This document shows positions 1-45,916 of a DNA stretch of 51,449 nucleotides, one piece after another. The translations under genes and the position numbers were made by a program. The number at the start of each line of letters is the position of its first letter. Within the stretch, counting starts at the first letter, position 1. Below the pieces are notes generated by a model. That model ran no database searches. It was given only the letters and a program-made list of their open reading frames with translations, and was not told the origin of the DNA. The stretch is from an uncultured Candidatus Saccharibacteria bacterium (GTDB lineage: Bacteria; Patescibacteriota; Minisyncoccia; Phycocordibacterales; Zambryskibacteraceae), in NCBI GenBank assembly GCA_964348525.1, contig CAYGCY010000004.1, positions 1,886 to 53,334 of the forward strand, written 5' to 3'.

Positions 1-3000
1 CGCTCACGAACCTTCTTACTAATGGCTCCACCACCCTCCAAAACTTCACATTCCAGAACGCAACAGGTACTCAAGCTACTACCACCAATCTCTTCTCTAC
101 CAATGGCACATTCACAAATCTTTTCGCCAACACGCTTAATTTAGCCAACCTATTAGTAACTGGTTCTACCACTCTCCAAAACCTCACATTCCAAAACGCT
201 ACAGGAACAAACGCAACGACAACTAATCTTTATGTTTCAGGTAGAGCCTCCACCACAGACTTAAGAGCAAACACAGGAAACATCGGAAGTTTAACAAGCG
301 TGTTTGCTACGCTCACGAACCTTCTTACTAATGGCTCCACCACCCTCCAAAACTTCACATTCCAAAACGCTACAGGAACAAACGCAACGACAACCAATCT
401 TTATGTTTCAGGGTTAGCATCAACAACTAGTCTTCGCGCAAACACAGGATTGTTTGGGAATGTTGGGATTGGTTTATCAAATCCTACAACCAAACTTCAC
501 ATCTCAGACATAACAGCTAATGCTCCACAAATCCTAGTTGAAAACACAAGTACTTATGGAATTCGTCTCGGATTAAATTCAAGCAATGTTGGTTTTATGG
601 GTTCAGCAAATGCAACGCCAGTACAAATTCAAACTAATAGTATTGCTCGAATGTATTTTGATACCGCAGGAAATGTTGGCATCGGAACATCTAGCCCGGC
701 GGGTGGGCAGTTAGTTATATCTTCTTCAACAGGCCCCCAACTTGCACTTACAGATGCATCTTTAACTAATAATGTCTGGACCTTTAGAAATTTGGGAAAT
801 AATCTCTATATTTCAACATCATCTCCAACATCATTCTCAACTTCAACTAATCCCGTTGTTTCTATAGATGGAATATTGGGTAATGTAAAAATTGGAACCA
901 CATCAGAATCTTATGCCTCTTCTTACACGTCTACATCCACAAAACTTCAGGTTGGTGGCGCTGGTAAATTTGGCTTTGGTTCATACGGAACAAGTAATCA
1001 AACTACAGTGACCGATGCCAGCTTGATTATTCCAACGGGCGGTCAAATATATATGGAAAATGCTCAGGGCTTCTTAAGAACATTGATTAAATCAGATGGA
1101 AGTGGAAACGTAGATATTGGGCAATCAGGAACAGCGATTGTTCCCTCAATAAGTTTGAAGGCAGGGAATGCCGGGTATATTTCAATGATACCCGGAGGAG
1201 GCGAGGCAATGAGAATTGTCAGTTCCGGTCTTGTTGGAATTGGTACAACCACACCAATTGCTAACGTAGATATTTTCAAAGCAAGCGGAGACGCATCTCA
1301 AGGATTTACCTCTTCCTCAACTGCGGGGGTACAGATGGCGTGGACAATCGGCACTGATATTTCTGATTCAGGAAAATTCAAAATATCTTCCTCAACACTT
1401 CTAGGCCTCAATGATAGATTTGTAATTGATGGATCGGGGAATGTGGGAATAGGCACAGCGAGCCCAGGAGCAAAATTACAGGTATATGGAGATGGGGCAA
1501 GCAGTGCCGGGACTATTTTAATCGACCAACCAACCTCACCAACCGGTTCAACTAGTGTGGGTCCTCACATATTCTTTAAATCTGCTGGGGTAAATAGAGG
1601 GTGGATAGGATTTTTTGATGCATCAGCTCACGGCAACGGCACAGAGATGAATTTGCGAGGTTATGCTGGCTTGAGATTGTCTGGTGCGTCAACTGGTGAT
1701 CATTTATATGTAAATACTAGTGGTAACGTTGGTATTGGGACAACAACACCTACCACTCTTTTAAATGTCTACGGAGATGCCTCCTTTGGACAGGCTGCGA
1801 AATCTACTATCTTTATCAGGGGCTCTGCTGGTACAGCTATTTCTTTCAATAGAAATCCAACGAGTGGAGCGATTACTAATACAGGTGCATATTCATATCA
1901 ATTAAATCACACAGAAAGTACCACTAATACAAGTGATTATTTAGCATGGCAAATCTATGATACGGCCGGTAATTCTGTTGCAAACAATGCTTTTGTATTG
2001 AATGGTGTAGGAAATGTTGGCATCGGCACCACCTCTCCTCTCACAAAACTCTCGGTTGCAGGCAATGCATATATAGGAGGATGGTTAATGGCAACAGGGA
2101 CAGCTTCAATAGCCGGAAACACATATCTAGGCTCTGAACTTTTGGTAATGGGTTCAACAACACTTCAGAATTTCACTGGGACAAGTGGCACTACAACCAA
2201 TTTCTTTGCCACCAATCTTACTGCCACTAATCTTACGTTTACGAATGAGATTACCACAAACTCAACTTCTACAAATGCAACCACTACCAATCTCTATGTT
2301 TCCGGGTTGGCTTCAACAACTAACCTAAGAGCAAATACTGCTTTGCTAGGAAATGTCGGTATAGGCACAACGACATCACTAACTGAAGCACTTACCGTAG
2401 ATGGAAATATAAAACTTAACAACAACACACTTTCTGCCCAAAGCATTACTCTCGATTCAGAAACAAGCATTGGTCTACGTGTTACTAATCCAAATGGGTA
2501 TGTTTCTATTACTCCGCTCAACACTTCTGGCGCTCATATCTATACCAGTCTTCCAAGATTTTATTTCAATGTAGCCCCAACTTCTATTACTGGAGCATTT
2601 AGCGCATACAGCACGACAGACCTCAGTCTCCAAACAGGAAGTGGTGCGTCTACTAGAATGACAATAAAAGCAGCTACTGGAAATGTGGGTATTGGTACCA
2701 CCACCCCAGAAGGCAGATTGGACATCCTCTCAACTAACACTCCAGGAATTGGCGCCGAGCCCACAGTAAAAGGAACACTAAGAATATTAGATGCAGGAGG
2801 GGACACGGCTTCAGCTGGAGGATTGGAATTCAAATCAGCAGCTACAGGCAATGGTTATGGCTGGAGACTCACTGCTCCAGACGAAGTAGGAGCACCAGGC
2901 TCACTGTATTTCCAAAAGAGAGCCAATTCAGCTTCTTGGACAAATGCAGTTACATTTAGAGGAGATTCTGGGAATGTGGGGATAGGTACGACGAGCCCTT

Positions 3001-6000
3001 ATGCAAGACTCTCTGTTTGGGGTTCTGATACATCCGCCACAACCCGTGCATTTGAAGTTGCAAATAACGCTTCTACCACAATGTTCTCTGTATTTAATAA
3101 TGGTCTTGCCGCTGCCACCAATTTCTTAGTTAATGGGTCTTCAACACTTCAAGCATTTACAGGAACTAATTATCTAGCCCTTGGCTCCACAACTCTTCAA
3201 TCATTTACCGGAACTAATGGAATTATTACTAACGCTACAACTACAAATGCCACCACAACTTACTTGTATGTTTCAGGATTAGCATCAACAACTGACATAC
3301 ATTCCAATACTGCAGACATTGGCTCTCTAGTTGCAAGAAATTTCCTTGCAAATGGCTCCACAACTCTTCAAACATTTACAGCAACACAAGCAACAATTAA
3401 TGCCACCAGCACAATAAGTAATCTCACGAATTCCCAAGAGTATTCAATAGCTCTAACTCTTGGTACCGAAGAGTGGGTCAAACTCGCTACAATTCCTAAC
3501 CATTCATACGCAACTTTTGTTGGAAATATTGGGTCTACAAACTCAGAAGAGACATTCAAAATAGACATTGGTACAACACACACTACATCGCTGGCATTAA
3601 TAGATGTCGATCGCCAGACATATAACGCAAGGTTGAGCGAAGTTAAAGTTGAAGGTGCTGATGGGGGTACTAGAACTATCTATGTAAGGATACGAACCTC
3701 TGATTTTGCTCCAACGATGACTTGGAGGGTGTTAAATGCAAAAGGTGCAATAACAGTGGTAAATGCAACTTCCACCACTCCTACAGGCGCAACTTTTGCA
3801 ACACTGCCTGTTACAGTCAATACATCAAACAACACAACTAAAACCCCAATATTCTTTAAGGGAAATGCTGACGCTTACGCGACCTTCACTGCGTCGTCAA
3901 CAGCGGGGGTATCTTTGGCGTGGTCTTTGGGGACCGACCTATCTGATTCAGGTAAGTTTAAAATATCTTCATCTACAGCATTAGGGTCATCGGACAGGTT
4001 TGTTATTGATGGAAATGGGAATGTGGGTATAGGAACTACCACCCCACTCTCCAAACTGGCAGTCTCTGGAGGCGTCTCTATTGGCTCCAACTACAATATC
4101 GCAGCTCCCACAGATGGGTTAATAGTAGAAGGTAGTGTTGGGATTGGGAGGTCGAGCGCAGGGGCTTCAAAATTACAAATTCTTGCAACTGGCAGTGGCT
4201 TTACTCAAGAAAAAACAATAGGAGGGTATTTCTATTCTATGGGTTTTAATGCGAACAACCCTTATTTGACATACTACTCGAGCACTGGGATGACGATTGG
4301 TTACGGAGAGGCTACAGGCGCAGCCCCAACAGTGAACACAATGACGCTATTGAATAATGGTAATGTCGGCATTGGTTCAACAACCCCACTCACAAAACTT
4401 TCTGTAGCTGGAAATACATATTTAGGTGGAAATGTAACAGCTACAGGCACAGCAACAGTTTATGGTTCTCTGATGGTTCTTTCATCAACCACTCTTCAAG
4501 TTGTTGGTGCAACTTATGCATCAACAACGCAAATCCAATCCACGGGGCAAGCATATCTCGCTACATCTGGTGGAAATGTGGGTATTGGCACTGCGGCACC
4601 TGCATACAAATTGGAAGTAGTGGGGACTTTGGGACATGACAATATTCAAATTTCTAAAGAGACAGCCATAAACTCTGGCACATACGGCGTTACTTATAAA
4701 ACTTTAATGTTGGGAGAAGAAGGGTCTCGTAGCATTTCATTAAACTATGATCCATCAACAAACACCTCAACCAATTTTAATGGTATTGATCAAATTTTTA
4801 TTCAAGACAGCAAAGGAATTTTGGCTCCAAACACTGCAGACAATGCCTTTATTGGGGTATTGAGACCGATGAATGATAGGGTTTATTTTGGAGGAAGTTT
4901 GAGTTCTGGAGATTTGCTAGGAGATGGTATGACAATTCTGTCTAGTTCCGGCAATGTCGGGGTTGGCTCAACCTCTCCTCTCACAAAACTCTCGGTTGCA
5001 GGCAGTGCATATATAGGGGGGTGGTTGGTAGCCACAGGCACAGCGCAAATAGATGGAGCTACTGTATTAAATTCAACACTGTTTGTTAATTCTTCCACAA
5101 CTCTTCAAAATTTTACTGCACAGAACGCAACCACTACAAACGCAACGACAACCAAATTTGCGATTACGGGTCTTTCTTCTCAAATTCCTTACGCATCACC
5201 TAATGGGGCGATTGTCCCACTTACAATTGGTACCAACCTTACTCTTACAAACGGTACACTTTCTTCTGCTCCCACATTTACCTTCCCATTCACAACCCAA
5301 ACTGATTGGGGGACACACAACGCAACCTCAACCATCATAGGATTTAAGGCTGGTTTTTATTCTCTCGCATCTTCGACAATAGGAAACAGCACTACTGGTG
5401 GAGGACTCACAATTTTTGGTGGAGCTACCACTACAAATAATTTCTTAGTATTGGGTTCAACTACTCTTCAAAATCTTACAACCACCAACGCCACCACAAC
5501 CAATCTTTATGTTTCAGGTCTCGCTTCCACCACAGATATTCATTCAAACCTAGCTAATATTGGCGCCCTTACAGTAGGTCCAATAACTTCCGGTTTGATA
5601 AATGGCCAAACAATTTCTTCAACAGCCTCATTCACAGGAACAGTAAATGCAGTTACAGGATATAAATTAAATGGCGCGGCTACTTCCGGCAACTATTTGA
5701 GGGGAGACGGAACCAACTTTGTTTCAAGCGCAATTCAAGTCAGTGATGTTCCTACACTCAACCAGAGCACAACTGGTTCGGCAGGAACTTTATTGCGCGA
5801 AGATAATCGCACAATCATACCAACCGAACTAACTTCCGCTTACTTAAAATTTGGCTTTACCAGTTTTGCCAATAATGATTCTTCACCTTACGCTGATTTT
5901 CTCCATATGAGGAGCTACACAGATGCTTCTGGCGGAAATGATAATTTGGTTATGTTCAACAAGAGCTCCATTGGTATGCGCATATACCAGCAGACTTGGG

Positions 6001-9000
6001 CAGCATCAACCTCTGCATACTCTTCTTACAAGGATGCAGTTCTAACAGATGTAGGAAGTGCCAATGTTACACTTCTTGGTTCAACAACTCTTCAAGCTAT
6101 AACAAGGACAACAGAACTCGCCCTAGGTTCCACCACCCTCCAATCATTCACAGGAACAAATGGCATCATTACTAACGCTACAACCACCAACGCTACAACA
6201 ACAAATCTCTATGTTTCTGGGTTGGCCTCTTCTTCAGCGTTGAGGGCTAATACTGCGTTATTTGGTGGAAATGTTGGAATTGGGACAACCACTCCAACCG
6301 CGCTTCTTTCTGTGCAAGGTGCTACCGCAAATCAGCTTATGTTGAGTTATGATGCCACCAATTCCACAAGGATATTCACCAACTCTGGTGGCGCACTTGT
6401 ACTAGACCCATCTGATGCTGGTGAGACAATTTATTTTGGTGCAGCAGGTACGTACTATATGAAGGGTGGGTCTAGCGGTTCAAATCTTTATGCACTCACA
6501 CTAAATCGTTCTGGTGGTAATCCTGCGGTAGCCGATATTTGGTCTGGCGGAAACGCTCTCGTTATTGGTGGAACATCAGCCGGCGCAGGAACTGTAACAA
6601 TAAATACTTCCGGTGGCGCAGCCCCAACCGCCTATTTTACTAGCTCAAGTGTTGGTATTGGAACGACGACACCAACACGACAGCTTACCGTAGCTGGTGT
6701 TGGAACAGGGATACTTAGGATCGATGGTAGTTTTTCTGGCGCTCCAGCAAGAAGGTCTATGCTTGAGTTAAGTTCTGACGATGCTGGAAGAGCGCAGGGT
6801 GTAATTACTATTTCTGCAGGAACAGAGGGGTGGTTTTATGGGAAACCATATTCAGCGGATGCATTTACAATTGGCTACGGCTCGTCTCAAGCTGAATACC
6901 CGGCACAATCAAAATTTTATATAACTAGTGCTGGAAACGTAGGGATAGGTTCATCTTCCCCGCTTACAAAACTCTCTGTAGCGGGAAGCGCATATATAGG
7001 AGGATGGTTGGTAGCCACAGGCACAGCACAAATTGATGGGGCAACTGTACTGAAGTCGACGCTGCTTGTTAATTCTTCAACAACCCTCCAATCATTCACA
7101 GGAACAAATGGAATTATTACTAACGCTACAACCACCAACGCCACCACAACCAATTTCTATGTTTCTGGATTAGCATCAACTACCAATCTAAGAGCAAATG
7201 TCGCAAACATTGGGAACCTTACTGTGACGACATGTAGCGGGTGTTCTGGTGGAACAATTGCTTGGCCTTTCACAAAACTATCAACTGGGGAGCAAGCAAC
7301 ATCAACTACACTTGCATTTTTGAATGGATTTATTTCAACAGCTTCTTCAACAATTAATTCCAATCTAGCTATTACTGGAAGTCTTGGAGTTGGGACATCA
7401 ACACCCAGTGGTTTTAAGGTTGATGTGGCTGGCAATGTGATACTTTCCGGTGATACTAGAAGTTTACAAATCGGACAGTCGGGTGGGCAAACCTTATATT
7501 TCCAAAATTCATCAAACGGAATTTCATTTAATAACAATCAGTTCCAATTTTTAACTACTCAAACATCAGGTTTTAATTTTTCTGGAGGCAATGTCGGTAT
7601 TGGAACCACCACTCCTTCTCGTGCACTAACAATATCTTCTTCAGCTGCACCACAACTTGCGCTTACTGACGCATCTCTTACATCAAACGCTTGGACAATG
7701 CGTTCCCTTGGCAACTTCTTCTACTTGGCGACATCAAGCCCAACGTCATATGCAACTTCGACAGTGCCTTCTCTTACAATCACACCAAATAATATGGTGG
7801 GAATCGGTACATCTACACCGGCTGCTGCAACACTTTCGGTGCAGGGAAGTATATATTCTTCTGGAAATGTAATGACATCTGGGCAACTCCTTGGCTCATT
7901 GCCTTTCAACTTCCTCACTACTCCTACAGCTTCGCCTTCTATAAATATGTCCACATACTCTACACTCTTAAACTGGGCGACAGGTTCTGGAGTGAGCGAC
8001 TTGTTTAGATTGCAAACAGATGCTTCTGCAAACGGCACAGGAAGTCTCCTTTTGGTACAAACAGGAGCGGGTGCCACCGTAAAACCATTAAATGTATATG
8101 CTGGTTCCGCGCAGGCGTTGACTATAGATACCTCGGGTAATACAGGTCTTGGTACCACATCTCCAGGTGCAAGGCTAGATGTTAACCAAATAAGCGGACA
8201 GCCAGGTGCATTCTTCGGAGACATTGCTGGCACTGGAACAGGGGGCACTATGCGATTTATTTCGGCACAAGGGCCAAATTCAACAGCAGACTATTATATA
8301 CAGCTAAACAACAACGCTCGTAGTGCTACTGGTGGGGTATTCCGCTTCACTGGGCGATTTGGTGCAAATGAGACTCTTTCTGTTGATGTGGCAAATCAAA
8401 GAGTAGGTATTGGTTCAAGTACCCCCGGAACAACACTCGCGGTTGTGGGTACTACAACGGGTTATGGATTTGTACCAAGCGCCAATTTGGCTTATGGTTT
8501 GGGTAGCACAGGACAAAGATTCAAAGATGTTTGGGTTGGTACTGCAAACATCGGTACATCCACTTGGTCAATTTCAAACGGCTCCGATGGCAGACTTACA
8601 TTCAACAACGCAGCAAACTCTGCGGGTACTGAAACTGTCTCTCTCGCAACAAATGGAAATGTTGGAATAGGGGTTACAAATCCACAATTTACTTTGGAAA
8701 TATCAGGAAGCACCAAAATTTCAGGGAATTTATCAAGTACATCTATTTCCATGTCTTCAATGAGCCCTTATTGGGCTACGTATAGTGCTGGAGGAGGAGC
8801 TGCTGGTAAAACACTTAAACTTAATGCATCTACTACTGTTATTTTTACTGGAGGAGCGATAAATATAAATAAGATAGGTAGCTATGGCACGGTGCAGGTT
8901 AGTTCTTATGCGATTAATGCAGGAATCGATGTAAATTTTTGGAGTGCTAGCCCGCCCTACGGAGATATGATCTTATTGGATTCTAGTAGATTAGTGTTTA

Positions 9001-12000
9001 CTTATGCGTATTCATCTTGGGGTACTAAGGCCGTGGTGTGTACGATTTCAGGAGATGCTGTTCAAAGTTGTGGATCTCCAGTAACTGTCAAATCTGGGAC
9101 AAGCCAGCCATGGCACAGCAAGCTAATTAACGTTGGTGATGGTACAAATTTCATTGTAGCTTACACGGATACAACCTCTGGAAGTGGTGTATTTGCGAGA
9201 GTCGGGGTAACTTCTGGCACTACTATTTCTTCTTTTGGCACAGAAGCCAGTTTCTCTGATGGAGGATGGAACACTACATATCCTACAATTTCAATGTTTG
9301 TTGCTACCACAACAAGATTTGTTCTTGGGTGGTACAACGCCACCCTAACTTCAGGGAGGTATGTAGTGGGCAATACAAGTGGCACCACAATAACATTTGG
9401 ACAAAGAGAAAATGGAGTTATGACCCACTCTTCCCCATCAGCAGGAGATGCTTTAATGCCCCTGTCTGATTCAAATATGTTGGTTTTTGCGCCAATAACC
9501 GGTGGTACTGTGCTTCATCAAATATCTGTTACGGGCACATCAACGATCGCTACTTCTACTCTTGCTGCATTATCCAATAGTGCGACAACTCCTTATGTTG
9601 ATCTTTTAGATTATCAAACAGTCGTTGTTGGTTACGGTACTAATTTTAGGATACTAAACATTTCTTCTTCCACAGTAACAAATATAGGATCACCTCAAAG
9701 CACGCCATCTGTTTCTCACCAATATATTGTTGGTATTTCAACTACCTCATTTATTTCAAATCTTCGTATTCTTAAAACAAGAGATATGTCTTTAACACAC
9801 GGCATTGATAGCTTTGACACAAGTCAAGCACTTGCCATCACCACGTCAAATCCGACAACAATGCGAACGATTAAACTTAGTGATTCAAAATTTGTTCATG
9901 TAATTGATGTGGGTTCCCAGATACAAATGAAAGCTGGGACTTATACTTCTACTGGGATTGAGAGGGTTGGTGCCCTACAAACCATTTCAACGACTACGAA
10001 TTATTTGTCTGCAGCGGCCTTAAGTGATAGTGCGTTTATTATTACTAATTCTTCTAATACTGGAGGAGCTAGTAGTGGAGGACACGTCGATGCGTGGATA
10101 TGTTCTGTTGACACTGCTAACACCATTACTTGTGGGACAGCAAGAAGGATTTTTGACTCTTATGTTGCAGGTGCTATCTATAATTCCGTAGACAGTTTTG
10201 GGAGCTCTAATTTTATCATTGGATACGCAACATCTACAAACGCCGCAGCTACTGTAGTGGCTGGTGCGTGGTCGGGTACCTCCATAACATCTCTTGGCAC
10301 ACCCCAAACATCCGGCTCAGGCTTAAGCATAACCGGTGTGGCTTTGGCTAGAATTTATGGGACTACAACACAGTTTGCTTTTGCGTATGTAGACAATACT
10401 GCAATATCTCCAGCTAAAAATAAGGTAGTAATAGGTACTATCTCCGGCACCACTATTACTCTAGGTAGTACGGCAAATCTTACTTCAGCGACCTCTTCTA
10501 ACATTAGAATTGTCTCTAACTCTCCCGACACTTTTATTGCTTACTCAACATTAACTTCCGGAAATGCTTTAATTCATGGTGCTATTTCAAATGAATATAG
10601 TGTAGCTACCACTTCTGTGCCGTTTGAAACATTAGCAACTCCTACTATGAGCGTATTGGATACCAGTCATATAATGTTATCGTCTGGGGCTGACTTTATA
10701 ATTTTCGAAACAGCACCTTCTGGTATAACTAGAATGCAGAATAGACAAACCGTACGAACAGGTGCCGTAACATACTTTAGCTCAATGGAGAATATCGCTG
10801 CTTTTAGTACAACCAGTGCAATAGTGTCTTATTATACTGATAATTTGGGTGGTAGTACCAACACTTATTCGGTTGCTATTTTATTTGATACAGCCGCGTT
10901 AAATTACCAATCTAAAGCACTTGTCATTAAGGAAACAGGCACGAGTCTTTTTGGAGATCCCAGAGTTGGTATTAACAATACTAGTCCTCTTTATGCCTTG
11001 CATGTTAATGCACCCACGGGTGAAACGACTGTGGCAGGATTTTCAAACGGTTCTTATACTTGTACTGTAAATCCTGCTGATACAGCATTAACATGTACTT
11101 CAGACATCAGACTTAAGAACAATATCTCCACGTTAGCAAGCTCAACGGACATTATAAGAAAACTAAGGGGCGTTAATTTCTCATGGAAAAATGATGAAAC
11201 AAATGCAAATCATATAGGATTTATTGCACAAGAAGTTCAAACAATTGCGCCAGAACTAGTGTCGGAAGGACCAAACGGAATATTGGGGGTGAACTACTTA
11301 AATTTTGCACCCTACTTGGTAAACGCATGGAATGCTTTGGATGTGCGCGTTTCTTCTCTTGAAGGAATTGCAACATCGACACTTCCTGCAACATCAACAC
11401 CAATGCTCTCTGTGACATCAACTGGTTTGGGAATTGGAACACTAACACCAGCATTTGCGCTTCACGCAAAATTTGGTGGAGAGGGAACTGCGGTATTTGA
11501 AAATGAAAATGGAATTTGCGAAATAAATCCAAACACGGGTTCATTTGGCTGTGCACCTAATAGGGGAGCAGTAGTAGCTACATCAACAATAGGCACCAGC
11601 CTTGCAAGCTCAACCGAAATAATAAAGAAACTTCGCGGAGTAAATCTCTCTCTAATGTCTGCTTCTTCAAGCGTAAGTCAATTTGGATTCCTAGCAGAGG
11701 ACGTGGAGATGATAGCTCCTGAACTAGTTTCAAATGTGGGTGGAATTAAGCTAGTAAAAACAACAGAGATGATTCCTCTTCTAGTAAACTCGGTTGCAGA
11801 TTTAGCCGTAAAAATAGACACAATAGATGAAAGGCTTGCCAAACTCGAAGCGCTAGTTGCTACCACCACAACTGCCACCTCAACTACCGCAACCAGCACA
11901 GGTATAACTTTGGGCGGACTAGATTTGCAGTTTGTAGTGGACGCAGTAGTAGGGGCATTCCAAAACATGACTACCCAAATAAGCTTCAACATCGCAAAAT

Positions 12001-12527
12001 TTAGTACCGTCTTTGCAGATAACATAATAATTGGTTCTAAAGAAAAACCATCCGGCATCACTCTATACGACATTGCAACAAGAGAGCCGTTCTGTATGAG
12101 AATCCAAAATGGGGGACAGATAACCACTCAAGGGGCATGCTCCGATGTGCTATTTGTAAACACTACTCCAACAGATGGAGGTACAACTTCCGGTGACACA
12201 AGTGGAGCCGTAGTGATAACAGACGTTGCAACAACTACAACTACAGCATCTTCTGATACTGCGACCTCGACCACTACAGCAAGCACAGACAGTGCAACTA
12301 CAACAGCTTCCACCGACACTACTACAACCACTGCTTCAACTGAAACTGGTACTACGGCCGTGACAACAGACACATCGACCCCCACAGCATCAACAGATAC
12401 AACCACAACGACTGCTTCAACCGATACCAGTACAACCACCGCATCAGAAACACCTGCCGAACCAACAGCTTCAGCTGATACCACTCAACCAACAGCATCT
12501 TCCGAACCTACACCTCCAACGGGCTAG
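1..12527 (+). CDS. Giant surface/secreted fibre protein, 5'-truncated by the window edge (>4,170 codons). It contains GNVGIGT modules, STTLQ-F-T/NATTTN/LYVSGLASTT modules, a central propeller-like block, two S74-type chaperone domains and a Thr-rich tail.
   Basis: The ORF track gives 300..12527. I read the same frame (codons starting at nt 3) upstream of 300 and found no stop (LTNLLTNGSTTLQNFTFQNATGTQATTTNLFSTNG...SLTSV), so the GTG at 300 is an ORF-caller artefact. More than 20 copies of GNVGIGT(T/S)xP-like strings. Stop TAG at 12525-12527, followed by a hairpin terminator. Confidence 0.92.
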   Translation, partial: LTNLLTNGSTTLQNFTFQNATGTQATTTNLFSTNGTFTNLFANTLNLANLLVTGSTTLQNLTFQNATGTNATTTNLYVSGRASTTDLRANTGNIGSLTSVFATLTNLLTNGSTTLQNFTFQNATGTNATTTNLYVSGLASTTSLRANTGLFGNVGIGLSNPTTKLHISDITANAPQILVENTSTYGIRLGLNSSNVGFMGSANATPVQIQTNSIARMYFDTAGNVGIGTSSPAGGQLVISSSTGPQLALTDASLTNNVWTFRNLGNNLYISTSSPTSFSTSTNPVVSIDGILGNVKIGTTSESYASSYTSTSTKLQVGGAGKFGFGSYGTSNQTTVTDASLIIPTGGQIYMENAQGFLRTLIKSDGSGNVDIGQSGTAIVPSISLKAGNAGYISMIPGGGEAMRIVSSGLVGIGTTTPIANVDIFKASGDASQGFTSSSTAGVQMAWTIGTDISDSGKFKISSSTLLGLNDRFVIDGSGNVGIGTASPGAKLQVYGDGASSAGTILIDQPTSPTGSTSVGPHIFFKSAGVNRGWIGFFDASAHGNGTEMNLRGYAGLRLSGASTGDHLYVNTSGNVGIGTTTPTTLLNVYGDASFGQAAKSTIFIRGSAGTAISFNRNPTSGAITNTGAYSYQLNHTESTTNTSDYLAWQIYDTAGNSVANNAFVLNGVGNVGIGTTSPLTKLSVAGNAYIGGWLMATGTASIAGNTYLGSELLVMGSTTLQNFTGTSGTTTNFFATNLTATNLTFTNEITTNSTSTNATTTNLYVSGLASTTNLRANTALLGNVGIGTTTSLTEALTVDGNIKLNNNTLSAQSITLDSETSIGLRVTNPNGYVSITPLNTSGAHIYTSLPRFYFNVAPTSITGAFSAYSTTDLSLQTGSGASTRMTIKAATGNVGIGTTTPEGRLDILSTNTPGIGAEPTVKGTLRILDAGGDTASAGGLEFKSAATGNGYGWRLTAPDEVGAPGSLYFQKRANSASWTNAVTFRGDSGNVGIGTTSPYARLSVWGSDTSATTRAFEVANNASTTMFSVFNNGLAAATNFLVNGSSTLQAFTGTNYLALGSTTLQSFTGTNGIITNATTTNATTTYLYVSGLASTTDIHSNTADIGSLVARNFLANGSTTLQTFTATQATINATSTISNLTNSQEYSIALTLGTEEWVKLATIPNHSYATFVGNIGSTNSEETFKIDIGTTHTTSLALIDVDRQTYNARLSEVKVEGADGGTRTIYVRIRTSDFAPTMTWRVLNAKGAITVVNATSTTPTGATFATLPVTVNTSNNTTKTPIFFKGNADAYATFTASSTAGVSLAWSLGTDLSDSGKFKISSSTALGSSDRFVIDGNGNVGIGTTTPLSKLAVSGGVSIGSNYNIAAPTDGLIVEGSVGIGRSSAGASKLQILATGSGFTQEKTIGGYFYSMGFNANNPYLTYYSSTGMTIGYGEATGAAPTVNTMTLLNNGNVGIGSTTPLTKLSVAGNTYLGGNVTATGTATVYGSLMVLSSTTLQVVGATYASTTQIQSTGQAYLATSGGNVGIGTAAPAYKLEVVGTLGHDNIQISKETAINSGTYGVTYKTLMLGEEGSRSISLNYDPSTNTSTNFNGIDQIFIQDSKGILAPNTADNAFIGVLRPMNDRVYFGGSLSSGDLLGDGMTILSSSGNVGVGSTSPLTKLSVAGSAYIGGWLVATGTAQIDGATVLNSTLFVNSSTTLQNFTAQNATTTNATTTKFAITGLSSQIPYASPNGAIVPLTIGTNLTLTNGTLSSAPTFTFPFTTQTDWGTHNATSTIIGFKAGFYSLASSTIGNSTTGGGLTIFGGATTTNNFLVLGSTTLQNLTTTNATTTNLYVSGLASTTDIHSNLANIGALTVGPITSGLINGQTISSTASFTGTVNAVTGYKLNGAATSGNYLRGDGTNFVSSAIQVSDVPTLNQSTTGSAGTLLREDNRTIIPTELTSAYLKFGFTSFANNDSSPYADFLHMRSYTDASGGNDNLVMFNKSSIGMRIYQQTWAASTSAYSSYKDAVLTDVGSANVTLLGSTTLQAITRTTELALGSTTLQSFTGTNGIITNATTTNATTTNLYVSGLASSSALRANTALFGGNVGIGTTTPTALLSVQGATANQLMLSYDATNSTRIFTNSGGALVLDPSDAGETIYFGAAGTYYMKGGSSGSNLYALTLNRSGGNPAVADIWSGGNALVIGGTSAGAGTVTINTSGGAAPTAYFTSSSVGIGTTTPTRQLTVAGVGTGILRIDGSFSGAPARRSMLELSSDDAGRAQGVITISAGTEGWFYGKPYSADAFTIGYGSSQAEYPAQSKFYITSAGNVGIGSSSPLTKLSVAGSAYIGGWLVATGTAQIDGATVLKSTLLVNSSTTLQSFTGTNGIITNATTTNATTTNFYVSGLASTTNLRANVANIGNLTVTTCSGCSGGTIAWPFTKLSTGEQATSTTLAFLNGFISTASSTINSNLAITGSLGVGTSTPSGFKVDVAGNVILSGDTRSLQIGQSGGQTLYFQNSSNGISFNNNQFQFLTTQTSGFNFSGGNVGIGTTTPSRALTISSSAAPQLALTDASLTSNAWTMRSLGNFFYLATSSPTSYATSTVPSLTITPNNMVGIGTSTPAAATLSVQGSIYSSGNVMTSGQLLGSLPFNFLTTPTASPSINMSTYSTLLNWATGSGVSDLFRLQTDASANGTGSLLLVQTGAGATVKPLNVYAGSAQALTIDTSGNTGLGTTSPGARLDVNQISGQPGAFFGDIAGTGTGGTMRFISAQGPNSTADYYIQLNNNARSATGGVFRFTGRFGANETLSVDVANQRVGIGSSTPGTTLAVVGTTTGYGFVPSANLAYGLGSTGQRFKDVWVGTANIGTSTWSISNGSDGRLTFNNAANSAGTETVSLATNGNVGIGVTNPQFTLEISGSTKISGNLSSTSISMSSMSPYWATYSAGGGAAGKTLKLNASTTVIFTGGAININKIGSYGTVQVSSYAINAGIDVNFWSASPPYGDMILLDSSRLVFTYAYSSWGTKAVVCTISGDAVQSCGSPVTVKSGTSQPWHSKLINVGDGTNFIVAYTDTTSGSGVFARVGVTSGTTISSFGTEASFSDGGWNTTYPTISMFVATTTRFVLGWYNATLTSGRYVVGNTSGTTITFGQRENGVMTHSSPSAGDALMPLSDSNMLVFAPITGGTVLHQISVTGTSTIATSTLAALSNSATTPYVDLLDYQTVVVGYGTNFRILNISSSTVTNIGSPQSTPSVSHQYIVGISTTSFISNLRILKTRDMSLTHGIDSFDTSQALAITTSNPTTMRTIKLSDSKFVHVIDVGSQIQMKAGTYTSTGIERVGALQTISTTTNYLSAAALSDSAFIITNSSNTGGASSGGHVDAWICSVDTANTITCGTARRIFDSYVAGAIYNSVDSFGSSNFIIGYATSTNAAATVVAGAWSGTSITSLGTPQTSGSGLSITGVALARIYGTTTQFAFAYVDNTAISPAKNKVVIGTISGTTITLGSTANLTSATSSNIRIVSNSPDTFIAYSTLTSGNALIHGAISNEYSVATTSVPFETLATPTMSVLDTSHIMLSSGADFIIFETAPSGITRMQNRQTVRTGAVTYFSSMENIAAFSTTSAIVSYYTDNLGGSTNTYSVAILFDTAALNYQSKALVIKETGTSLFGDPRVGINNTSPLYALHVNAPTGETTVAGFSNGSYTCTVNPADTALTCTSDIRLKNNISTLASSTDIIRKLRGVNFSWKNDETNANHIGFIAQEVQTIAPELVSEGPNGILGVNYLNFAPYLVNAWNALDVRVSSLEGIATSTLPATSTPMLSVTSTGLGIGTLTPAFALHAKFGGEGTAVFENENGICEINPNTGSFGCAPNRGAVVATSTIGTSLASSTEIIKKLRGVNLSLMSASSSVSQFGFLAEDVEMIAPELVSNVGGIKLVKTTEMIPLLVNSVADLAVKIDTIDERLAKLEALVATTTTATSTTATSTGITLGGLDLQFVVDAVVGAFQNMTTQISFNIAKFSTVFADNIIIGSKEKPSGITLYDIATREPFCMRIQNGGQITTQGACSDVLFVNTTPTDGGTTSGDTSGAVVITDVATTTTTASSDTATSTTTASTDSATTTASTDTTTTTASTETGTTAVTTDTSTPTASTDTTTTTASTDTSTTTASETPAEPTASADTTQPTASSEPTPPTG
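8750..10900 (+). other. Central block of the giant protein with no GNVGIGT modules. It has roughly 55-65 aa repeats carrying an SG(T/S)(T/S)I(T/S)..G motif (propeller-like; inferred).
   Basis: Recurring strings in the translation: VCTISGDAVQSCGSP, GVTSGTTISSFGTE, GNTSGTTITFGQRE, VDTANTITCGTARR, AWSGTSITSLGTPQ, GTISGTTITLGSTA. Confidence 0.45.
11100..11366 (+). other. Peptidase S74 / tail-fibre intramolecular chaperone auto-processing domain, copy 1, with the S-D-x-R-x-K start
   Basis: Translation SDIRLKNNISTLASSTDIIRKLRGVNFSWKNDETNANHIGFIAQEVQTIAPELVSEGPNGILGVNYLNFAPYLVNAWNALDVRVSSLE fits the family pattern SDxRxK...L.gv.f.w......hiGfIAQEv....PElV.......v.Y..l.p.l..a...L. Confidence 0.8.
11607..11856 (+). 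other. Second, N-terminally truncated S74-like chaperone domain (no SDxRxK motif)
   Basis: SSTEIIKKLRGVNLSLMSASSSVSQFGFLAEDVEMIAPELVSNVGGIKLVKTTEMIPLLVNSVADLAVKIDTIDERLAKLE parallels copy 1 from the IIRKLRGVN position onward. Confidence 0.65.
12160..12524 (+). other. Thr/Ser/Ala-rich low-complexity C-terminal tail of the giant protein
   Basis: Translation TTTTASSDTATSTTTASTDSATTTASTDTTTTTASTETGTTAVTTDTSTPTASTDTTTTTASTDTSTTTASE... Confidence 0.8.
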
Positions 12528-12591: not shown

Positions 12592-12597
12592 GATTTT

Positions 12598-12935
12598 GTG
12601 TTCGAGCTCGTAAGCCGAGTTCTGTTTCTAAGCAACATTTATCTTGGCGATGCATTACTGCAAAGCTCTAGCGACTCAAATTCCGCCGAAGCGAAAAGTA
12701 CGGTCTTGCACTCAAGTAAGGATTTAGCCGTTTCACTTTCAATATTACTATTGAACTCACCCCGTGCTTACGCTCGGGGCGATTTTTTTCTTTCAAAAAA
12801 AATCGTCTCTGTTCGCACCTCGCATATCACTATGGACGGGCGTTACCCGCTACTCTTGTTCCGCGAAAGCGGAACCAAGTGCTCGGACTTTCCTCCCTCT
12901 AAAAAATAGAGAGTGGTTGCTCGACTCGAACACCC
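12598..12935 (-). ncRNA. rnpB: RNase P RNA, bacterial type A
   Basis: The minus-strand read contains GGAGGAAAGTCCGAGCAC (CR-I), AGCGGGTAACGCCCGTC, GAAAGTGAAACGGC and ACAGAACTCGGCTTACG (CR-V). The termini pair as P1: GTGTTCGAG at 12598-12606 is complementary to CTCGAACAC at 12925-12933. Confidence 0.85.
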
Positions 12936-13097: not shown

Positions 13098-15458
13098 ATG
13101 GATAGTTTTAATGGTTTGATTGAAAGCAATAAGGGCTCAAATTCGTCTAGATTTGCTGTGTGGGTGTTGAGTATTGTAGCGATTCTTTTACCAATATTTT
13201 TTATTCCTTCATCTGTAGTTTCTCTGCCAGTAGCAAAAATGCTCTTGCTTTCGGTAGGGGTGTTAGTAGCTCTTGCTGCAGTTATATTAACAACGATTCA
13301 GCATGGGGAAGTTAGAATCCCTTGGAACTTAATGACGGCAAGTGTTTTGGCCATTCCTTTAGCGTTTTTGGTGGCATCTGTTTTTTCTTCTAATCCGTCG
13401 CACTCACTCTGGGGATACGGTTTTGAAAACGGTACTTTTGGTTTCATTGTTCTCAGTGCTTTGGCAACTCTCTTGGTTGCTTCGCTCATGAGAAATGGCC
13501 AAAAATACGGAACAATCTTATGGGGGTTACTATCCGTCTCTATAATATTAGGTTTGTTCCATGTCATTAGATTCTTTGTTGGTGCATCTAAACTCTCTTT
13601 TGGTTTGTTTACTGATGTTTTGGCTAATACCGTTGGAGGTTGGAATGAACTAGCCATATGGTTTGGTCTCACAGCAGTGCTCTCTGTAATAATGCTTGAG
13701 ACAATGAGGCCAATTGGCACAGCGAAGATAGTTTCTTATGCCTCGCTCGTCCTCTCGGTGATAGTAATGGCTGTTATTAATTTCAAAACAGCTTGGATTT
13801 TGGCTGGTGTATTTGCGGTGGTGTTCTTGGTCTATGAGCTCTCAAGAGTAAGCGCCAATCAGGATGGTTCTTCAAAAAGAAAAGTTTCTTGGTTTGCACT
13901 CGGGCTTTTGATAGTGTCTCTGTTTTGTGTTTTGGCAGGTTCTACAATCGCAACTGGTATTACTCAAAAATTAGGTGTGGGCTCAGTAGAGGTAAGACCT
14001 TCGTGGGGGGCGACATTTATGGTTTTGAAATCAGCACTTTCTGACAATGTTCTTATAGGGGCTGGGCCAAACAATTTTACTGATGTGTGGCTCAAGCATA
14101 AGCCTGATGGAATAAATGAAACGATATTCTGGAATACTGATTTCACTACCGGTATAGGATTGGTCCCAACCTTTGCTATCACTACAGGAATTCTTGGAAT
14201 TCTTGCTTGGGTGCTCTTCTTTGCGATGATTATTCGATACAGTGTGAAGTTGATGTTTAGAGAAGGAGTGGATGCTCAGGAAAAATTAATGAGTGTGTCC
14301 TCAGTCTTCGGGACGCTCTTCTTGTGGTCGGTGGCCGTTTTCTACACGCCGTCATCCGCCCTTCTAGCTCTGGCTTTCTTCTTTACTGGGCTTTTTGTGG
14401 CCTCCCTTTATAGAGCGGGCTATCTAAAAGTAAAAGGCTTCTCCCTCTTTTCGGTGCCGAGAGCCAGTTTTGTGTCGGTTCTCCTGCTGATTGTAGTTCT
14501 TATCGGAGTGGTTTCTTTTGGGTTCTTGTTTATTGAAAGGGCTGTAGCACAGATATATTTTGGCAAAGCAGTACTAGTAGCCAATGAACGCGGGAATATG
14601 GATATGGCAGAAAGCTACTTAAACAAAGCAGTTTCTGTGCACCCATTTGATTCGTTCTACAGATCACTTTCAACAGTGTCGATAACCAAGCTTTCTAATT
14701 TGCTGAATGATCAAAATGCTACAGCAGAATCTGTACAAGCAGGGTTCGGAGCACTGCTATCTAGTGCTATCCAAAATGCCCAAACAGCTACACAGGTTAA
14801 TCCGTCAAATTATCAAAACTGGACATCGCTTGCGCAAGTCTATGCTTCTGTAGTTCCTCAGCCTTTCAAAATAGCGGACGCCTACGAATCAGCAAAAACT
14901 GCGTTTGAAAAAGCGAGAGAACTTAATCCATCAAGTCCTGCAATAGTTTTGTCTATGGCACGCCTTGAGTCGGATCATGAAAACTTGTCAAAAGCCGTTG
15001 AGGTAGCAGAAGAAGCTGTAAAACTAAAAACTAATTATGCAGACGGGCACTTCTTCTTGTCTCAAATAGCGGTACAACAAGGCAACTTGTATACAGCTAT
15101 AGAAAAGACTCAGACTACGATTTTGTTGTCTCCACAAAATGCTGGTTTGTATTTCCAGCTCGGCATTCTTTACTTTAATTTGCCTGACTACACAAAAGCT
15201 TCTCAAGCTCTTGCTCAGGCGGTGCAGATTATTCCTGACTATGCGAACGCAAGATACTTCCTAGGTTTGTCGTTAGCGAGGACGGGAGACAAGGCAGGAG
15301 CAACTGCACAGTTTGAAGCAATTCAAAAAACCAATCCTGACAATGCAGAGATAAAGAGCGTTTTGGCGAATCTAAAGGCAGGTAAAGACCCTCTCTCAGG
15401 GCTTGGTAAAGATGTCCAGCCTTCAAACAGACAGACACTGCCAGTCTCGGGTCAATAA
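13098..15458 (+). CDS. Polytopic membrane protein with C-terminal TPR repeats (O-antigen-ligase/Wzy-like plus TPR architecture; the product name is tentative)
   Basis: 786-aa ORF. About 10 or more hydrophobic helices in the first ~500 aa. The C-terminus has TPR-like A/Y/L periodicity (NYQNWTSLAQVYAS, GLYFQLGILYFNLPDYTKASQALAQAV, ARYFLGLSLARTGDKAGA). Confidence 0.8.
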   Translation: MDSFNGLIESNKGSNSSRFAVWVLSIVAILLPIFFIPSSVVSLPVAKMLLLSVGVLVALAAVILTTIQHGEVRIPWNLMTASVLAIPLAFLVASVFSSNPSHSLWGYGFENGTFGFIVLSALATLLVASLMRNGQKYGTILWGLLSVSIILGLFHVIRFFVGASKLSFGLFTDVLANTVGGWNELAIWFGLTAVLSVIMLETMRPIGTAKIVSYASLVLSVIVMAVINFKTAWILAGVFAVVFLVYELSRVSANQDGSSKRKVSWFALGLLIVSLFCVLAGSTIATGITQKLGVGSVEVRPSWGATFMVLKSALSDNVLIGAGPNNFTDVWLKHKPDGINETIFWNTDFTTGIGLVPTFAITTGILGILAWVLFFAMIIRYSVKLMFREGVDAQEKLMSVSSVFGTLFLWSVAVFYTPSSALLALAFFFTGLFVASLYRAGYLKVKGFSLFSVPRASFVSVLLLIVVLIGVVSFGFLFIERAVAQIYFGKAVLVANERGNMDMAESYLNKAVSVHPFDSFYRSLSTVSITKLSNLLNDQNATAESVQAGFGALLSSAIQNAQTATQVNPSNYQNWTSLAQVYASVVPQPFKIADAYESAKTAFEKARELNPSSPAIVLSMARLESDHENLSKAVEVAEEAVKLKTNYADGHFFLSQIAVQQGNLYTAIEKTQTTILLSPQNAGLYFQLGILYFNLPDYTKASQALAQAVQIIPDYANARYFLGLSLARTGDKAGATAQFEAIQKTNPDNAEIKSVLANLKAGKDPLSGLGKDVQPSNRQTLPVSGQ

Positions 15459-15473
15459 AGACCGCTCGGGCTT

Positions 15474-15663
15474 GTTATTTTAGAATCAACTGCCACTCGG
15501 CTGAAAATTCGTAAATAACTAAGCTGAATAACGAAAAACATTAAAACTTCCGAAACAAAAACATAGCGATATATCGCTATGTTTTTGTTTGTGTTCAAAC
15601 ACTTAATGTTTTTCTATTACGCTAGAGTTATTTACGAATAGCCTCGTGAGCTTCTAAAATAAC
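15474..15663 (+). repeat. ~190-nt long-hairpin structured intergenic element, copy 1 (family shared with 45699-45875)
   Basis: Outer arms GTTATTTTAGAA / TTCTAAAATAAC. Inner arms TTCGTAAATAAC / GTTATTTACGAA and GAAAAACATTAA / TTAATGTTTTTC. The apex is the perfect palindrome AAACAAAAACATAGCGATAT|ATCGCTATGTTTTTGTTT. Confidence 0.75.
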
Positions 15664-15713
15664 AAAACCCTCGCTTTAAGTAAAAAGTGTTCGTATGGTA
15701 GGATGACAGAACG

Positions 15714-39187: not shown

Positions 39188-39188
39188 C

Positions 39189-39220
39189 AAAAATACCACT
39201 CATAAGTGAGTGGTATTTTT
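39189..39220. terminator. Bidirectional terminator between pth and rpsA
   Basis: AAAAATACCACTCA-TAAG-TGAGTGGTATTTTT. Confidence 0.8.
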
Positions 39221-39238
39221 GTATTTCTTATCTAGTTT

Positions 39239-43222: not shown

Positions 43223-45688
43223 ATGAAAAAGAAAGAAGAAACAACAAAAGAAGAGATACCACACCAAAATGTTGTGTCGCGTTCGATAGTTTCTGAAATG
43301 AAAGAATCTTTCATTGATTACGCCATGAGCGTAATCACAGACCGAGCGCTTCCAGATGTGCGTGACGGTTTGAAGCCGGTGCATAGAAGGATCCTTTTTA
43401 CCATGAACGAAATGGGACTTACTGCTTCCGCCAAATTCAGAAAATCAGCAACAGTGGTGGGAGATGTTTTGGGTAATTATCACCCACACGGAGATACGGC
43501 CGTCTATGATTCTATGGTAAAGCTCGCTCAAGATTTTTCTACTAGATACCCTTTGGTTTTGGGTCAGGGAAACTTCGGTTCCGTTGATGGCGATCAGGCG
43601 GCAGCATACAGATACACTGAAGCCAAAATGTCTAAAATCTCGAGCGAAATGCTAGCAGATATAGAAAAAGACACCGTAGATTTTAAACCAAACTATGACG
43701 GTAGAAAAAAAGAGCCGACGGTTCTGCCGACAGCAATTCCCAACCTCATTCTCAATGGCACTTTGGGGATTGCTGTAGGAATGGCCACCAATATTCCTCC
43801 GCACAACTTGCGTGAAGTGGCCGACGCTGTTTCTTTTTATGTAGACAATGAGGATGCGTCAACGGACGACCTGATGCAGTTTATAAAAGGTCCAGATTTT
43901 CCTACGGGGGGAATCGCTTTTAATGAAAAAGATATTCATCATGCTTCTTCTACAGGAAGAGGTGGAGTGGTGGTGAGAGGGGTTGCGGAAATTGTTGAAT
44001 CAAAGCTAAATCAGTTTCAAATAATAATTTCAGAATTGCCGTACAGGGTGAATAGATCCACTCTTATAGAAAATATTGCCGAACTGGTAAAGGATAAAAA
44101 GATAGAAGGCATAAAAGATATGCGAGATGAGTCTACAAAAGAGACCCGCATAGTTATTGAGTTAAAAAATGGTTCCCAACCTCAAAAAATTCTCAACGCA
44201 CTCTACAAACACACTCAGCTTGAAGAAACTTTTCATTACAATCTGGTCGCCATAGTGGACGGCGTGCCACAAACACTCTCGCTCGCAGACATTATAGGAG
44301 AATTTGTTGCTCACAGAAAAATTGTAATAAAAAGACGTACAGAGTTTGATTTGGCAAAAGCTAAAGACAGAGAACACATCTTGCTCGGTCTCAAAAAAGC
44401 TCTCGACCATATAGACGAAATCATCAAGCTTATTAAAAAATCAAAGGACGTTGAGGCGGCGAAGCTCGGCTTGATGAAAGAATTCAAGTTCTCTGAAAAA
44501 CAGGCTATTGCCATTTTGGAAATGAGGCTTCAAAAGCTCGCGGGACTAGAAAGACAGAAAATAGAAGACGAGCTTAAAGAGGTGGGGATTCTTATAAAAG
44601 AGTTAGAGGCCATTCTTTCTTCGCCCAAAAAAGTACTTTCAATAATTAAAAAAGAAATGTCTGATGCGTCCGAAAAATACGGAGATGATAGGCGCACCAA
44701 AATAGTGAAGCACGCCGTAAAGTCGTTTTCAGTAGAAGACCTTATTCCAGATGAAGAGCAAACTCTAGTATTAACGGCCGGTGGTTATGTAAAAAGAACC
44801 AAACCAGAAGAATACAGAAAACAGAAAAGGGGCGGAGTGGGAGTAATAGATTTGGATACAAAAGAAGAGGATTTCGTCACCAATATTTTATCTGCCTCAA
44901 CTCATGCTGACCTACTATTTTTCTCTGACAAAGGAAAAGTGTATCAGCTAAAAATGTTTGATTTGCCGGAGGGCAAGAGAGCTACCAAGGGAAAAGCGAT
45001 GGTGAATTATTTGGCGATTTCGGAGGACGAAAAAATAACATCCATTCTTCCTGTGCCAAAAGAAGCAAAAGCAGTAGAGGATTTATCTCTTATTATGGTT
45101 ACAAAAAACGGCACTGGCAAAAGAGTGGCAGCAAAATCTTTTTCAGATGTGCGTTCTAGCGGAATTATTGCGATTAAGCTCGACGAAGGGGACAAACTGC
45201 AATCTGTCTCTCTGTGCAAATCGGGGGACACGGTCATTTTGGCATCAAGCGATGGGCAGTCTATACATTTCAAAGAATCTGATGTACGAGAAATGGGAAG
45301 AACCGCTGGGGGCGTAAGGCTTATTAGTTTGAAAGGAAAAGATTCCGTAGTAGGAGCTCAAGTGGTAGCAAAAGCTGATGCAGGGAAAGCAGAGCTTCTC
45401 ACTGTGTCTCAAAATGGGTATGGGAAAAAGACCCCACTTGAAGAATATAAGGTTCAAAATAGAGGAGGCTCTGGTATAAAGACCGCCCAAGTAACGACAA
45501 AAACTGGGAAAGTAATGGCAGCTTCTATCGTCTTGTCCCTCGAAGAGGAGTTGGTAGCTATTTCTAAAAAAGGTCAGATTATTCGTGTGGGTACAGAGGA
45601 AATACCATCACTCGGTAGACAGACTCAAGGTGTAAGAATTATGAAATTACGTGAAGGAGACTCTCTGGCCTCGACTGTTTGTTTATAA
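43223..45688 (+). CDS. gyrA: DNA gyrase subunit A
   Basis: [32 protein letters not shown], and the active-site region [10 protein letters not shown]. 821 aa. Confidence 0.95.
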
Positions 45689-45698
45689 AATTTCGTTT

Positions 45699-45875
45699 GG
45701 ATATGTTATTTCAAAATCAACGGCCACTCGTCTTAAAATTTAAAAATAACCCAAGCTTCATAAACGAAAAACACCAGAACTCGTCCCGTTAGAACGGGAC
45801 TCAGACGCCTGGTGTTTTTCTATTGCGCTAAGGTTATTTTGAAATATCCTCATGAGCTTTTGAAATAACATATCC
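45699..45875 (+). repeat. ~180-nt long-hairpin structured intergenic element, copy 2 (family shared with 15474-15663)
   Basis: Perfect 18-bp outer arms GGATATGTTATTTCAAAA / TTTTGAAATAACATATCC. Inner arms AAAATAACC / GGTTATTTT and GAAAAACACCAG / CCTGGTGTTTTTC. The apex is GTCCCGTT-AG-AACGGGAC. Confidence 0.75.
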
Positions 45876-45916
45876 TCACTCTAAAATACTAAAAAGTATT
45901 GTAGAATATATAAGGT

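Follow-up and report, generated by a model that had tools for sequence, protein, structure and literature searches.

A genus-restricted family of polar, modular palindromic repeats placed behind stop codons in Paceibacteria

In Enterobacteria and Pseudomonas, dispersed extragenic palindromes at the 3' ends of genes are known as REP/BIME and REPIN-RAYT systems. Single REP units are short (20-40 nt) and carry a GTAG or CGTC tag, BIMEs combine modules in a mosaic fashion, and a role in termination or mRNA stabilisation was proposed for these repeats. The ERIC/IRU and Correia (CREE/NEMIS) repeats are longer imperfect palindromes of about 120-160 bp, which are transcribed with their neighbours and whose presence is polymorphic. 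The attC sites of integrons are located directly after stop codons and recombine as a folded strand. Here, we compare with these systems a family of long hairpin elements that was recognised by two copies in a DNA stretch of 51,449 nucleotides (the window). The window lies on contig C4 of the source genome G000 (545,666 bp, 19 contigs, 98.8% complete). G000 to G005 denote six genomes, each a species, of one genus; L numbers and c numbers (c2-c6) denote loci or copies.

A first, sequence-only reading of the window had described two related structured elements in one orientation, at 15474-15663 and 45699-45875. Both are present there on the + strand. Copies 1 and 2 align at 77% column identity, the conserved blocks named in that description are found in both, and all three stem differences quoted between them are changed on both sides of the stem. 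The extent of the elements had been drawn too short: the gap after the stop codon, given as 11-16 nt, is actually 0-5 nt, and the basal helix reaches the stop codon. Because this helix runs from the stop codon to the right-end block CCTCGCT(C/T)TAAA, we set copy 1 to approximately 15456/15459-15680 and copy 2 to approximately 45686/45689-45887 (Table 1). In copy 1, the stop codon itself is the outermost part of the basal helix (TAAAG ... CTTTA). The apex, thought to differ completely between the copies, falls into a few discrete types with AACTCG...CTCAGAC brackets. The "conserved unpaired blocks" turned out to be largely symmetric mismatch motifs, with CTCG on both arms, and not free loops.

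Table 1. Features of copy 1 and copy 2 and of the genes in front of them (positions in the window)
Feature	Position	Strand	Basis
TAA stop of the upstream TPR-repeat gene (13098-15458)	15456..15458	+	ORF list, Pfam, sequence
Copy 1, full extent, long-apex type	15459..15680	+	sequence, fold, covariance model
Copy 1, left end AGACCGCTCGGG	within 15459..15680	+	sequence
Copy 1, outer stem	15474-15485 paired with 15652-15663	+	sequence, fold
Copy 1, junction TCAACTGCCACTCG opposite CTCGTGAGC	15486-15499 opposite 15643-15651	+	sequence, fold
Copy 1, middle stem	15500-15519 paired with 15627-15642	+	sequence, fold
Copy 1, inner stem GAAAAACATTAA paired with TTAATGTTTTTC	15533-15544 paired with 15603-15614	+	sequence, fold
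Copy 1, apex module; AACTTCC and GTGTTCAAACAC bracket the perfect palindrome ACAAAAACATAGCGATAT / ATATCGCTATGTTTTTGT	15545..15602	+	
Copy 1, right end CCCTCGCTTTAAG	15668-15680	+	sequence
TAA stop of gyrA (43223-45688), abutting copy 2	45686..45688	+	sequence, Pfam
Copy 2, full extent, short-apex type	45689..45887	+	sequence, fold, covariance model
Copy 2, outer stem GTTATTTCAAAA paired with TTTTGAAATAAC	45705-45716 paired with 45858-45869	+	sequence, fold
Copy 2, junction TCAACGGCCACTCG opposite CCTCATGAGC	45717-45730 opposite 45848-45857	+	sequence, fold
Copy 2, apex CTCGTCCCGTTAGAACGGGACTCAGAC; right end CCTCACTCTAAAAT	within 45689..45887	+	sequence

Folding predicts a single long hairpin for copy 1 (-77 kcal/mol, z -13.2) as well as for copy 2 (-64.1 kcal/mol, z -9.1), and in neither case were any of 200 shuffled sequences as good. 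The elements of the family measure 170-220 bp and comprise three stacked helices; a rod-like hairpin of approximately 60 bp would form either in the transcript or in extruded DNA. Downstream of the two copies, Pfam assigns murJ and a gene for a solute-binding protein. A sigma-70-like motif, TTGAAA-16-TAAAAT (10 of 12 matches), lies over the right end of copy 2 at 45860-45887 (+) and is directed towards the next gene, 30 nt away. An outward promoter at the right end of the element was considered and rejected, as these hexamers are not conserved across the copies. Elsewhere in the window, a giant ORF of 4232 aa (G000 C4:1714-14412), which begins upstream of the window, covers positions 1-12527 (+), and an RNase P RNA gene follows directly at 12595-12932 (-).

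The expectation that a covariance model would reveal further copies was borne out, with eight copies in G000 and 47 collected from six species of the genus. The covariance model was built from seven copies. With nhmmer and the covariance model, seven strong copies, a degenerate one (C6:16152-16327) and an isolated 5' arm beside c3 were found in G000; copy 1 scores 174.7 bits in forward direction, and copy 2 scores 197.3 bits forward versus 49.9 bits reverse. All six genomes of the genus hold between 3 and 14 matches to the model, which found no family match in 55 genomes of 40 other genera from the same family and order. A scan of approximately 185,000 species representatives with exact motifs recovered the family only in this genus, plus unrelated hits at chance level: by our own calculation about 28 hits are expected by chance, and the hits outside the CPR are at that number. 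Six further family copies occur in public metagenome contigs, and none was found in the viral contigs searched. We thus deal with a genus-restricted family of polar, modular palindromic DNA repeats of Paceibacteria (CPR).

The first reading could not assign the two copies to a family, and no Rfam family matches them. An Rfam scan of the window at gathering thresholds had no hit at copy 1 or copy 2. In a permissive Rfam scan of copy 1, all matches were of the generic long-hairpin kind (miRNA precursors) and did not exceed 31 bits, versus thresholds of 100-211. Our full-text searches of PubMed Central and bioRxiv did not bring up any account of CPR bacteria with such repeats. A search for the locus in RNA sequencing runs found it in none of them. 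Metagenome DNA contigs which cover copy 1 show strain variants and contig breaks at the apex only, and no excision joint. Within the apex palindrome of copy 1, one public contig ends at 15586, and one strain carries a 6-nt deletion; palindromic repeats of this family fragment metagenome assemblies at their tips. A composite-like arrangement is observed in G004, where two 95%-identical inverted copies (C6:37443-37616, +, and 39153-39326, -) lie 1.5 kb apart around one or two small genes.

The forward model scores of the family copies (about 130-198 bits) far exceed the reverse scores (about 27-51 bits), so that the family has a clear direction. The elements are placed with high regularity. Of the 47 copies, 34 follow a co-oriented ORF (70 aa or longer) whose stop falls between -10 and +10 nt relative to model position 1. 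If L029 and three copies behind the short rpsR gene are added, the number standing flush behind a co-oriented stop rises to at least 38 of 47. A stop triplet is found 0-5 nt ahead of the end motif CGCTCGG in 36 of the 47, and a TAA, TAG or TGA triplet follows the right end in 33 copies. The TAA stop sits within the basal helix of the family elements. In the group of copies at the c4 site, the ORF extends 4-10 nt into the element and ends at an internal TAG or TAA. Four comparisons of occupied with empty sites show the stop codon at the identical aligned position with or without the element; the element therefore lies behind the native stop, and the gene is not truncated. In convergent gene pairs, each gene may bear its own copy, e.g., c3 and the half copy beside it, or the pair on contig C8 of G004. 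An account of this polarity by replication strand was considered and rejected: GC skew on the sense strand of the element is positive for five, negative for two and approximately zero for one of the eight G000 copies, which makes it uninformative and a poorer predictor than gene orientation. A process acting on DNA alone would not be expected to align the elements so strictly with the gene in front, and this co-orientation suggests a coupling to transcription or translation.

The question whether the stems are held together by selection on a fold can be addressed by the base pairs themselves. In an alignment of 40 distinct family members to the model, which as a model-fitted alignment favours structure, standard pairs make up 94.2% of the cells of 53 pairs, versus 74.0% after shuffling and at most 51% with a slid 3' partner. 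Changes on both sides occur in 43 of the 53 pairs and in 419 cells. The covariation first seen between two copies is thus supported statistically with a very large margin, since the covariation score of 0.504 compares with 0.155 in shuffled alignments (0 out of 500 reach it) and at most 0.092 in slid ones. The kind of exchanges is informative as well. An RNA fold under selection is expected to have many G·U and few A·C pairs. With one conserved G·U column excluded from the count, the 53 modelled pairs comprise 1862 Watson-Crick cells, 29 G·T cells on the sense strand (1.4%), 60 A·C cells (3.0%) and 54 others. These pairing statistics argue against a selected fold at the mRNA level.

The two strands of the element are not equivalent. 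Folded with RNA parameters, 45 of the 47 copies are less stable on the sense than on the antisense strand (mean difference 8.7 kcal/mol); DNA parameters give the same order for 41 of them. Three parts of the element, the base, the junction of outer and middle stem, and the apex bracket, carry CTCG on both arms, which means tandem C·U/U·C mismatches on the sense strand, and CGAG facing CGAG with tandem G·A pairs on the antisense strand. In a strand-symmetric alignment of the arms, the sense strand accordingly shows 283 C·T/T·C versus 54 G·A/A·G mismatches and 140 A·C versus 43 G·T. This wobble asymmetry is due to the conserved junction columns: isolated mismatches within the variable stems comprise 21 G·T versus 26 A·C (p = 0.56), i.e., no strand bias. 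We therefore conclude that the variable stems are probably kept complementary by a strand-symmetric, DNA-level process, and that the junction motifs are conserved separately and structurally sensible on the antisense strand only. A DNA-level maintenance also fits the long apex variants, which are perfect, copy-specific palindromes of 13-23 bp. Five of these are centred on CGATATATCG; copy 1 has this centre, with an A-run before and a T-run after its palindrome, and L017, L027, L037 and L041 have it with other perfect arms. Some selection acts nevertheless, because the junction motifs and an 8-nt bulge (CAACNRCC) are conserved asymmetrically, and simple arm-to-arm correction would erase asymmetric motifs.

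Comparison of copies between loci and species reveals a mosaic. Copies at unrelated loci can share inner modules (CCACTCG to CTCGTGAG) of 93-100% identity, while the outer stems of the same pairs reach 48-80%; the correlation of inner with outer identity is 0.11. This holds across species, too, as the inner module of G000 c5 is 96-97% identical to those of L018, L029 and L035 in G002. Whole elements are 92-96% identical at non-orthologous loci, within as well as between species (L023/L036, 94.8%; L029/L035, 95.6%; L051/L052, 92.2%), and this whole-element similarity extends from (A)AAGTCGCTCGG to CTCGCT(C/T)TAAAG. The reverse situation is seen in the orthologous pair L036/L044, whose flanks are 91% identical and whose elements are 68% identical; for each of these elements, a copy at another place is closer, with 89-95% identity. 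Apex types cluster by genome, and the CCCG...CGGG apex occurs only in G000 c2, c3, c4 and c6. The site of copy 1 is also occupied in G004 (L051), and that of copy 2 in G001 (L032) and G004 (L059). From orthologous occupancy in combination with element exchange, it follows that the family is old in the genus, vertical at many sites and repeatedly overwritten from other copies.

Five sites are empty in G000 and occupied in relatives, and four of these hold other hairpins. At window positions 39175-39255 (- strand; G000 C4:41055-41140), a terminator-like hairpin ACAAAAATACCACTCACTTATGAGTGGTATTTTTGT (-23 kcal/mol, z -4.7) lies behind a stop; the orthologue of this site in the sister species G004 is the family copy L024. 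At G000 C1:114525-114650, the post-stop slot holds a member of another hairpin family (z -6.1), whose stem is AT-rich and 20 bp long and whose tip reads GGAGAGAT...CTCC; in G005, this slot is filled by the family copy L031. The hairpin at G000 C9:3545-3680 (z -4.9) combines the family end motifs CCACTCGGGG ... CCCCTCGTTCTAAG with an unrelated interior and is missed by the covariance model; it may represent a sister family or an overwritten copy. At G000 C2:78793-78817, a weak short hairpin (z -2.1) keeps both end motifs in degraded form, so that this absence looks like a deletion remnant. The rpsR site in G000 shows no significant hairpin. With four of five empty sites carrying hairpins, the post-stop slot is usually filled by some hairpin. 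All differences in presence and absence could be losses.

These observations bear on the initial view that the element is maintained and not a recently copied MITE. Its first half stands, as old orthologous sites and strong covariation speak for maintenance. The conclusions that covariation points to a selected RNA and excludes a repeat are not supported. Covariation does not exclude a repeat of MITE type here: the family is confined to one genus with 3-14 matches per genome, orthologous sites are found empty, non-orthologous copies are 92-96% identical, and modules reassort.

Near-identical copies at unrelated loci together with varying occupancy of orthologous sites are what is expected of a MITE, and both are found here. 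We searched the metagenome bins for three transposase families. PF01609 (DDE_Tnp_1) has no match in any of the six genomes, and PF07282 (TnpB) has none over its cut-off. PF01797 (Y1/HUH) is not found in G000, G002 and G004, which have the highest numbers of matches to the model. PF01797 is present in G001, G003 and G005 in the form of RAYT-like genes. The one on contig C12 of G001 (L063) encodes a Y1 transposase of 217 aa with the motifs HFH and YIHLNP, and near-identical 34-nt GC-rich hairpins, CCAAGGACTAACCTCCGC(A/G)GAGGTTAGTCCTTGG, are located on both sides of it (L063, 1258-1291 and 1949-1982). A CPR genome thus shows the classic layout of a REP-RAYT system, which has no relation to the repeat family of this study. 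Around the RAYT-like genes, the covariance model reaches at most 20 bits, and no RAYT gene is flanked by the repeat under study.

The pattern that would have marked the elements as plain MITEs, target-site duplications around identical terminal repeats, was not demonstrated, and no cognate transposase was seen in the tested families. TAA(A/G) flanks most copies on both sides; it is at the same time part of a terminal inverted repeat (TAAAG...CTTTAAAG), and the empty sites stem from species of only about 70-80% identity and cannot be aligned base by base. The stop-like triplets at both ends also led us to consider an IS200/IS605-like insertion 3' of an antisense TTA, with a displaced native stop. 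This idea was set aside because TAAAG...CTTTAAAG may just as well be the terminal inverted repeat, and because every available empty site is a distant one.

With respect to transcription, a consensus scan called no terminator at copy 1, copy 2, L051 or L053. The whole hairpin ends with CUCGCU(C/U)UAAA and has no U-run behind it, and thus differs from an intrinsic (Rho-independent) terminator, i.e., a GC-rich stem-loop followed by a U-run. By eye, about a quarter of the copies have a tip that resembles the A-run, stem and T-run of bidirectional terminators; the T-run itself is paired. Since the hairpin lacks a following U-run and the scan made no call, we can only infer a role as terminator. 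No antisense promoter was found beside copies 1 and 2 by the consensus scan. An antisense RNA is not claimed, as the global G·U count favours the antisense strand and the control with isolated mismatches does not.

Implementing all these facts, we give an even chance to the explanation that copies 1 and 2 are members of a REP/BIME/MITE-like repeat family which resides in the post-stop, gene-end slot, and not a dedicated RNA gene. Stem complementarity would then be kept at the DNA level and not by selection on an mRNA fold, presumably in such a way that arm is corrected against arm, and copy against copy, via template switching or gene conversion at stalled or extruded palindromes. The conserved junctions would both mark the break-points of recombination and be recognised by some protein. 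As a gene-end hairpin, the element may be useful to its host or at least tolerated, acting as transcription stop or insulator, or as a protector of the 3' end. A bolder version, which we consider rather unlikely, sees the elements as transposase-free hairpin cassettes whose whole modules are exchanged at the CGAG/CGAG junctions, by a structure-specific enzyme of host or phage or by replication template switching; such cassettes would be self-correcting, locked onto stop codons and co-opted as gene-end signals.

Three further explanations have to be weighed against the repeat family in the gene-end slot, and each appears improbable to us. The regular position flush behind a co-oriented stop in at least 38 of 47 copies would be readily understood if the sense strand acted in cis as a 3' UTR RNA, be it as terminator, RNase III site, 3'-end stabiliser or a fold coupled to translation termination. 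The sense RNA does fold at -35 to -100 kcal/mol, its loop sequences are conserved, and sites free of the element usually carry another hairpin. We nevertheless ascribe a low probability to such an RNA, given that G·U pairs make up 1.4% of the sense cells and are rarer than A·C, that the sense strand is the less stable one in 45 of 47 copies, and that the conserved motifs are tandem C·U/U·C mismatches in it. The unpaired positions are C-rich and G-poor, the terminator-like tip of long-apex copies would stop the transcript ahead of the 3' arm, the hairpin lacks a U-run, copies exchange modules, and the family occurs in a single genus. Some of these objections turn into arguments for a functional antisense form, whether a small RNA gene, a stop for backward polymerases, or single-stranded DNA for a hairpin-specific enzyme: the antisense strand gives the more stable fold for 45 of the 47 copies under RNA parameters (by 8.7 kcal/mol on average) and for 41 under DNA parameters, and on it the sense mismatches read as G·U and, at three or four junctions with CGAG facing CGAG, as tandem G·A pairs. 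This bias, however, comes from conserved junction columns that represent few inherited motifs, and isolated mismatches (21 vs 26, p = 0.56) do not share it. The window copies have no antisense promoter beside them in the consensus scan, most copies are located between tandem genes, where an antisense transcript is not expected, and the transposase searches yielded no gene for a hairpin-specific enzyme, so that this explanation, too, has little probability in our view.

The last of the three is a classical non-autonomous transposon (MITE/REPIN) that targets the TAA(A/G) of stop codons. It would be moved in trans by a transposase which either belongs to an unrecognised family, sits on a phage or plasmid, or is missing from the bins. 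Such a transposon would account for the varying number of matches (3-14 per genome), the 92-96% identical whole elements with defined similarity ends at non-orthologous loci, the stop-like triplets after the right end (33 copies) and before the left end (36), and the empty orthologous sites. The genomes with most matches have no Y1, DDE_Tnp_1 or TnpB, though, and the RAYT-like genes of G001, G003 and G005 have their own, unrelated flanking hairpins (the G001 gene was inspected in detail). The flanking TAAAG...CTTTAAAG is readable as part of the inverted repeat, so that it does not prove a duplication; many copies are ancient at orthologous sites; and near-identity can also be explained by conversion of existing copies, as for L035 at a site occupied in four species. 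We thus judge a classical transposon to be unlikely as well.

In ultra-small CPR bacteria, mobile DNA that can be recognised is, to our knowledge, almost absent, and the intergenic regions are very short. The genus nonetheless retains 3-14 matches per genome of a palindrome of about 200 bp right behind stop codons, including those of the essential genes gyrA and rpsR. If the elements are in fact transposase-free, self-correcting and module-swapping, they would offer a tractable case for studying the persistence and spread of palindromes in minimal genomes, and would also inform on what marks gene ends in minimal CPR genomes. From a practical point of view, such repeats give rise to false "novel ncRNA" calls when genomes are screened by covariation, because their strong covariation mimics a structured RNA.

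Among the known systems, the family is in good agreement with REP/BIME and REPIN-RAYT with respect to its dispersal as extragenic palindromes at gene 3' ends and, for BIMEs, its mosaic module combinations. Complementary hairpin arms, vertical persistence, homogenisation within genomes and the role proposed in termination or mRNA stabilisation are further points in common with REP/REPIN. It departs from REP units in forming one hairpin of 170-220 bp with three stacked helices, in the lack of a GTAG or CGTC tag, and in its strictly stop-flush, polar placement, and from REPIN-RAYT in that G000, G002 and G004 have no RAYT and the RAYT-like genes of the sister species go with unrelated hairpins. 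The attC sites of integrons resemble the family in their position directly after the stop, in conserving structure at variable sequence, in a strand asymmetry caused by extrahelical bases and in a recombination that would act on a folded single strand. In contrast to attC, RYYYAAC...GTTRRRY core sites are absent from the ends, and the copies stand singly behind housekeeping genes such as gyrA and rpsR and not in cassette arrays. With ERIC/IRU and Correia repeats, the family shares the long imperfect palindrome presumably transcribed with its neighbours, the polymorphic presence and the occurrence of size variants with internal indels. Going by the descriptions of these repeats, it is set apart from them by the lack of a demonstrable duplication of TA or another target, by ends which are not simple terminal inverted repeats (CTCG on both arms), by its reassorting modules and by its restriction to one CPR genus. 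Taken together, the reading that fits best is a new member of the REP/BIME/MITE type of bacterial palindromic repeat, unusually large and modular for its kind.
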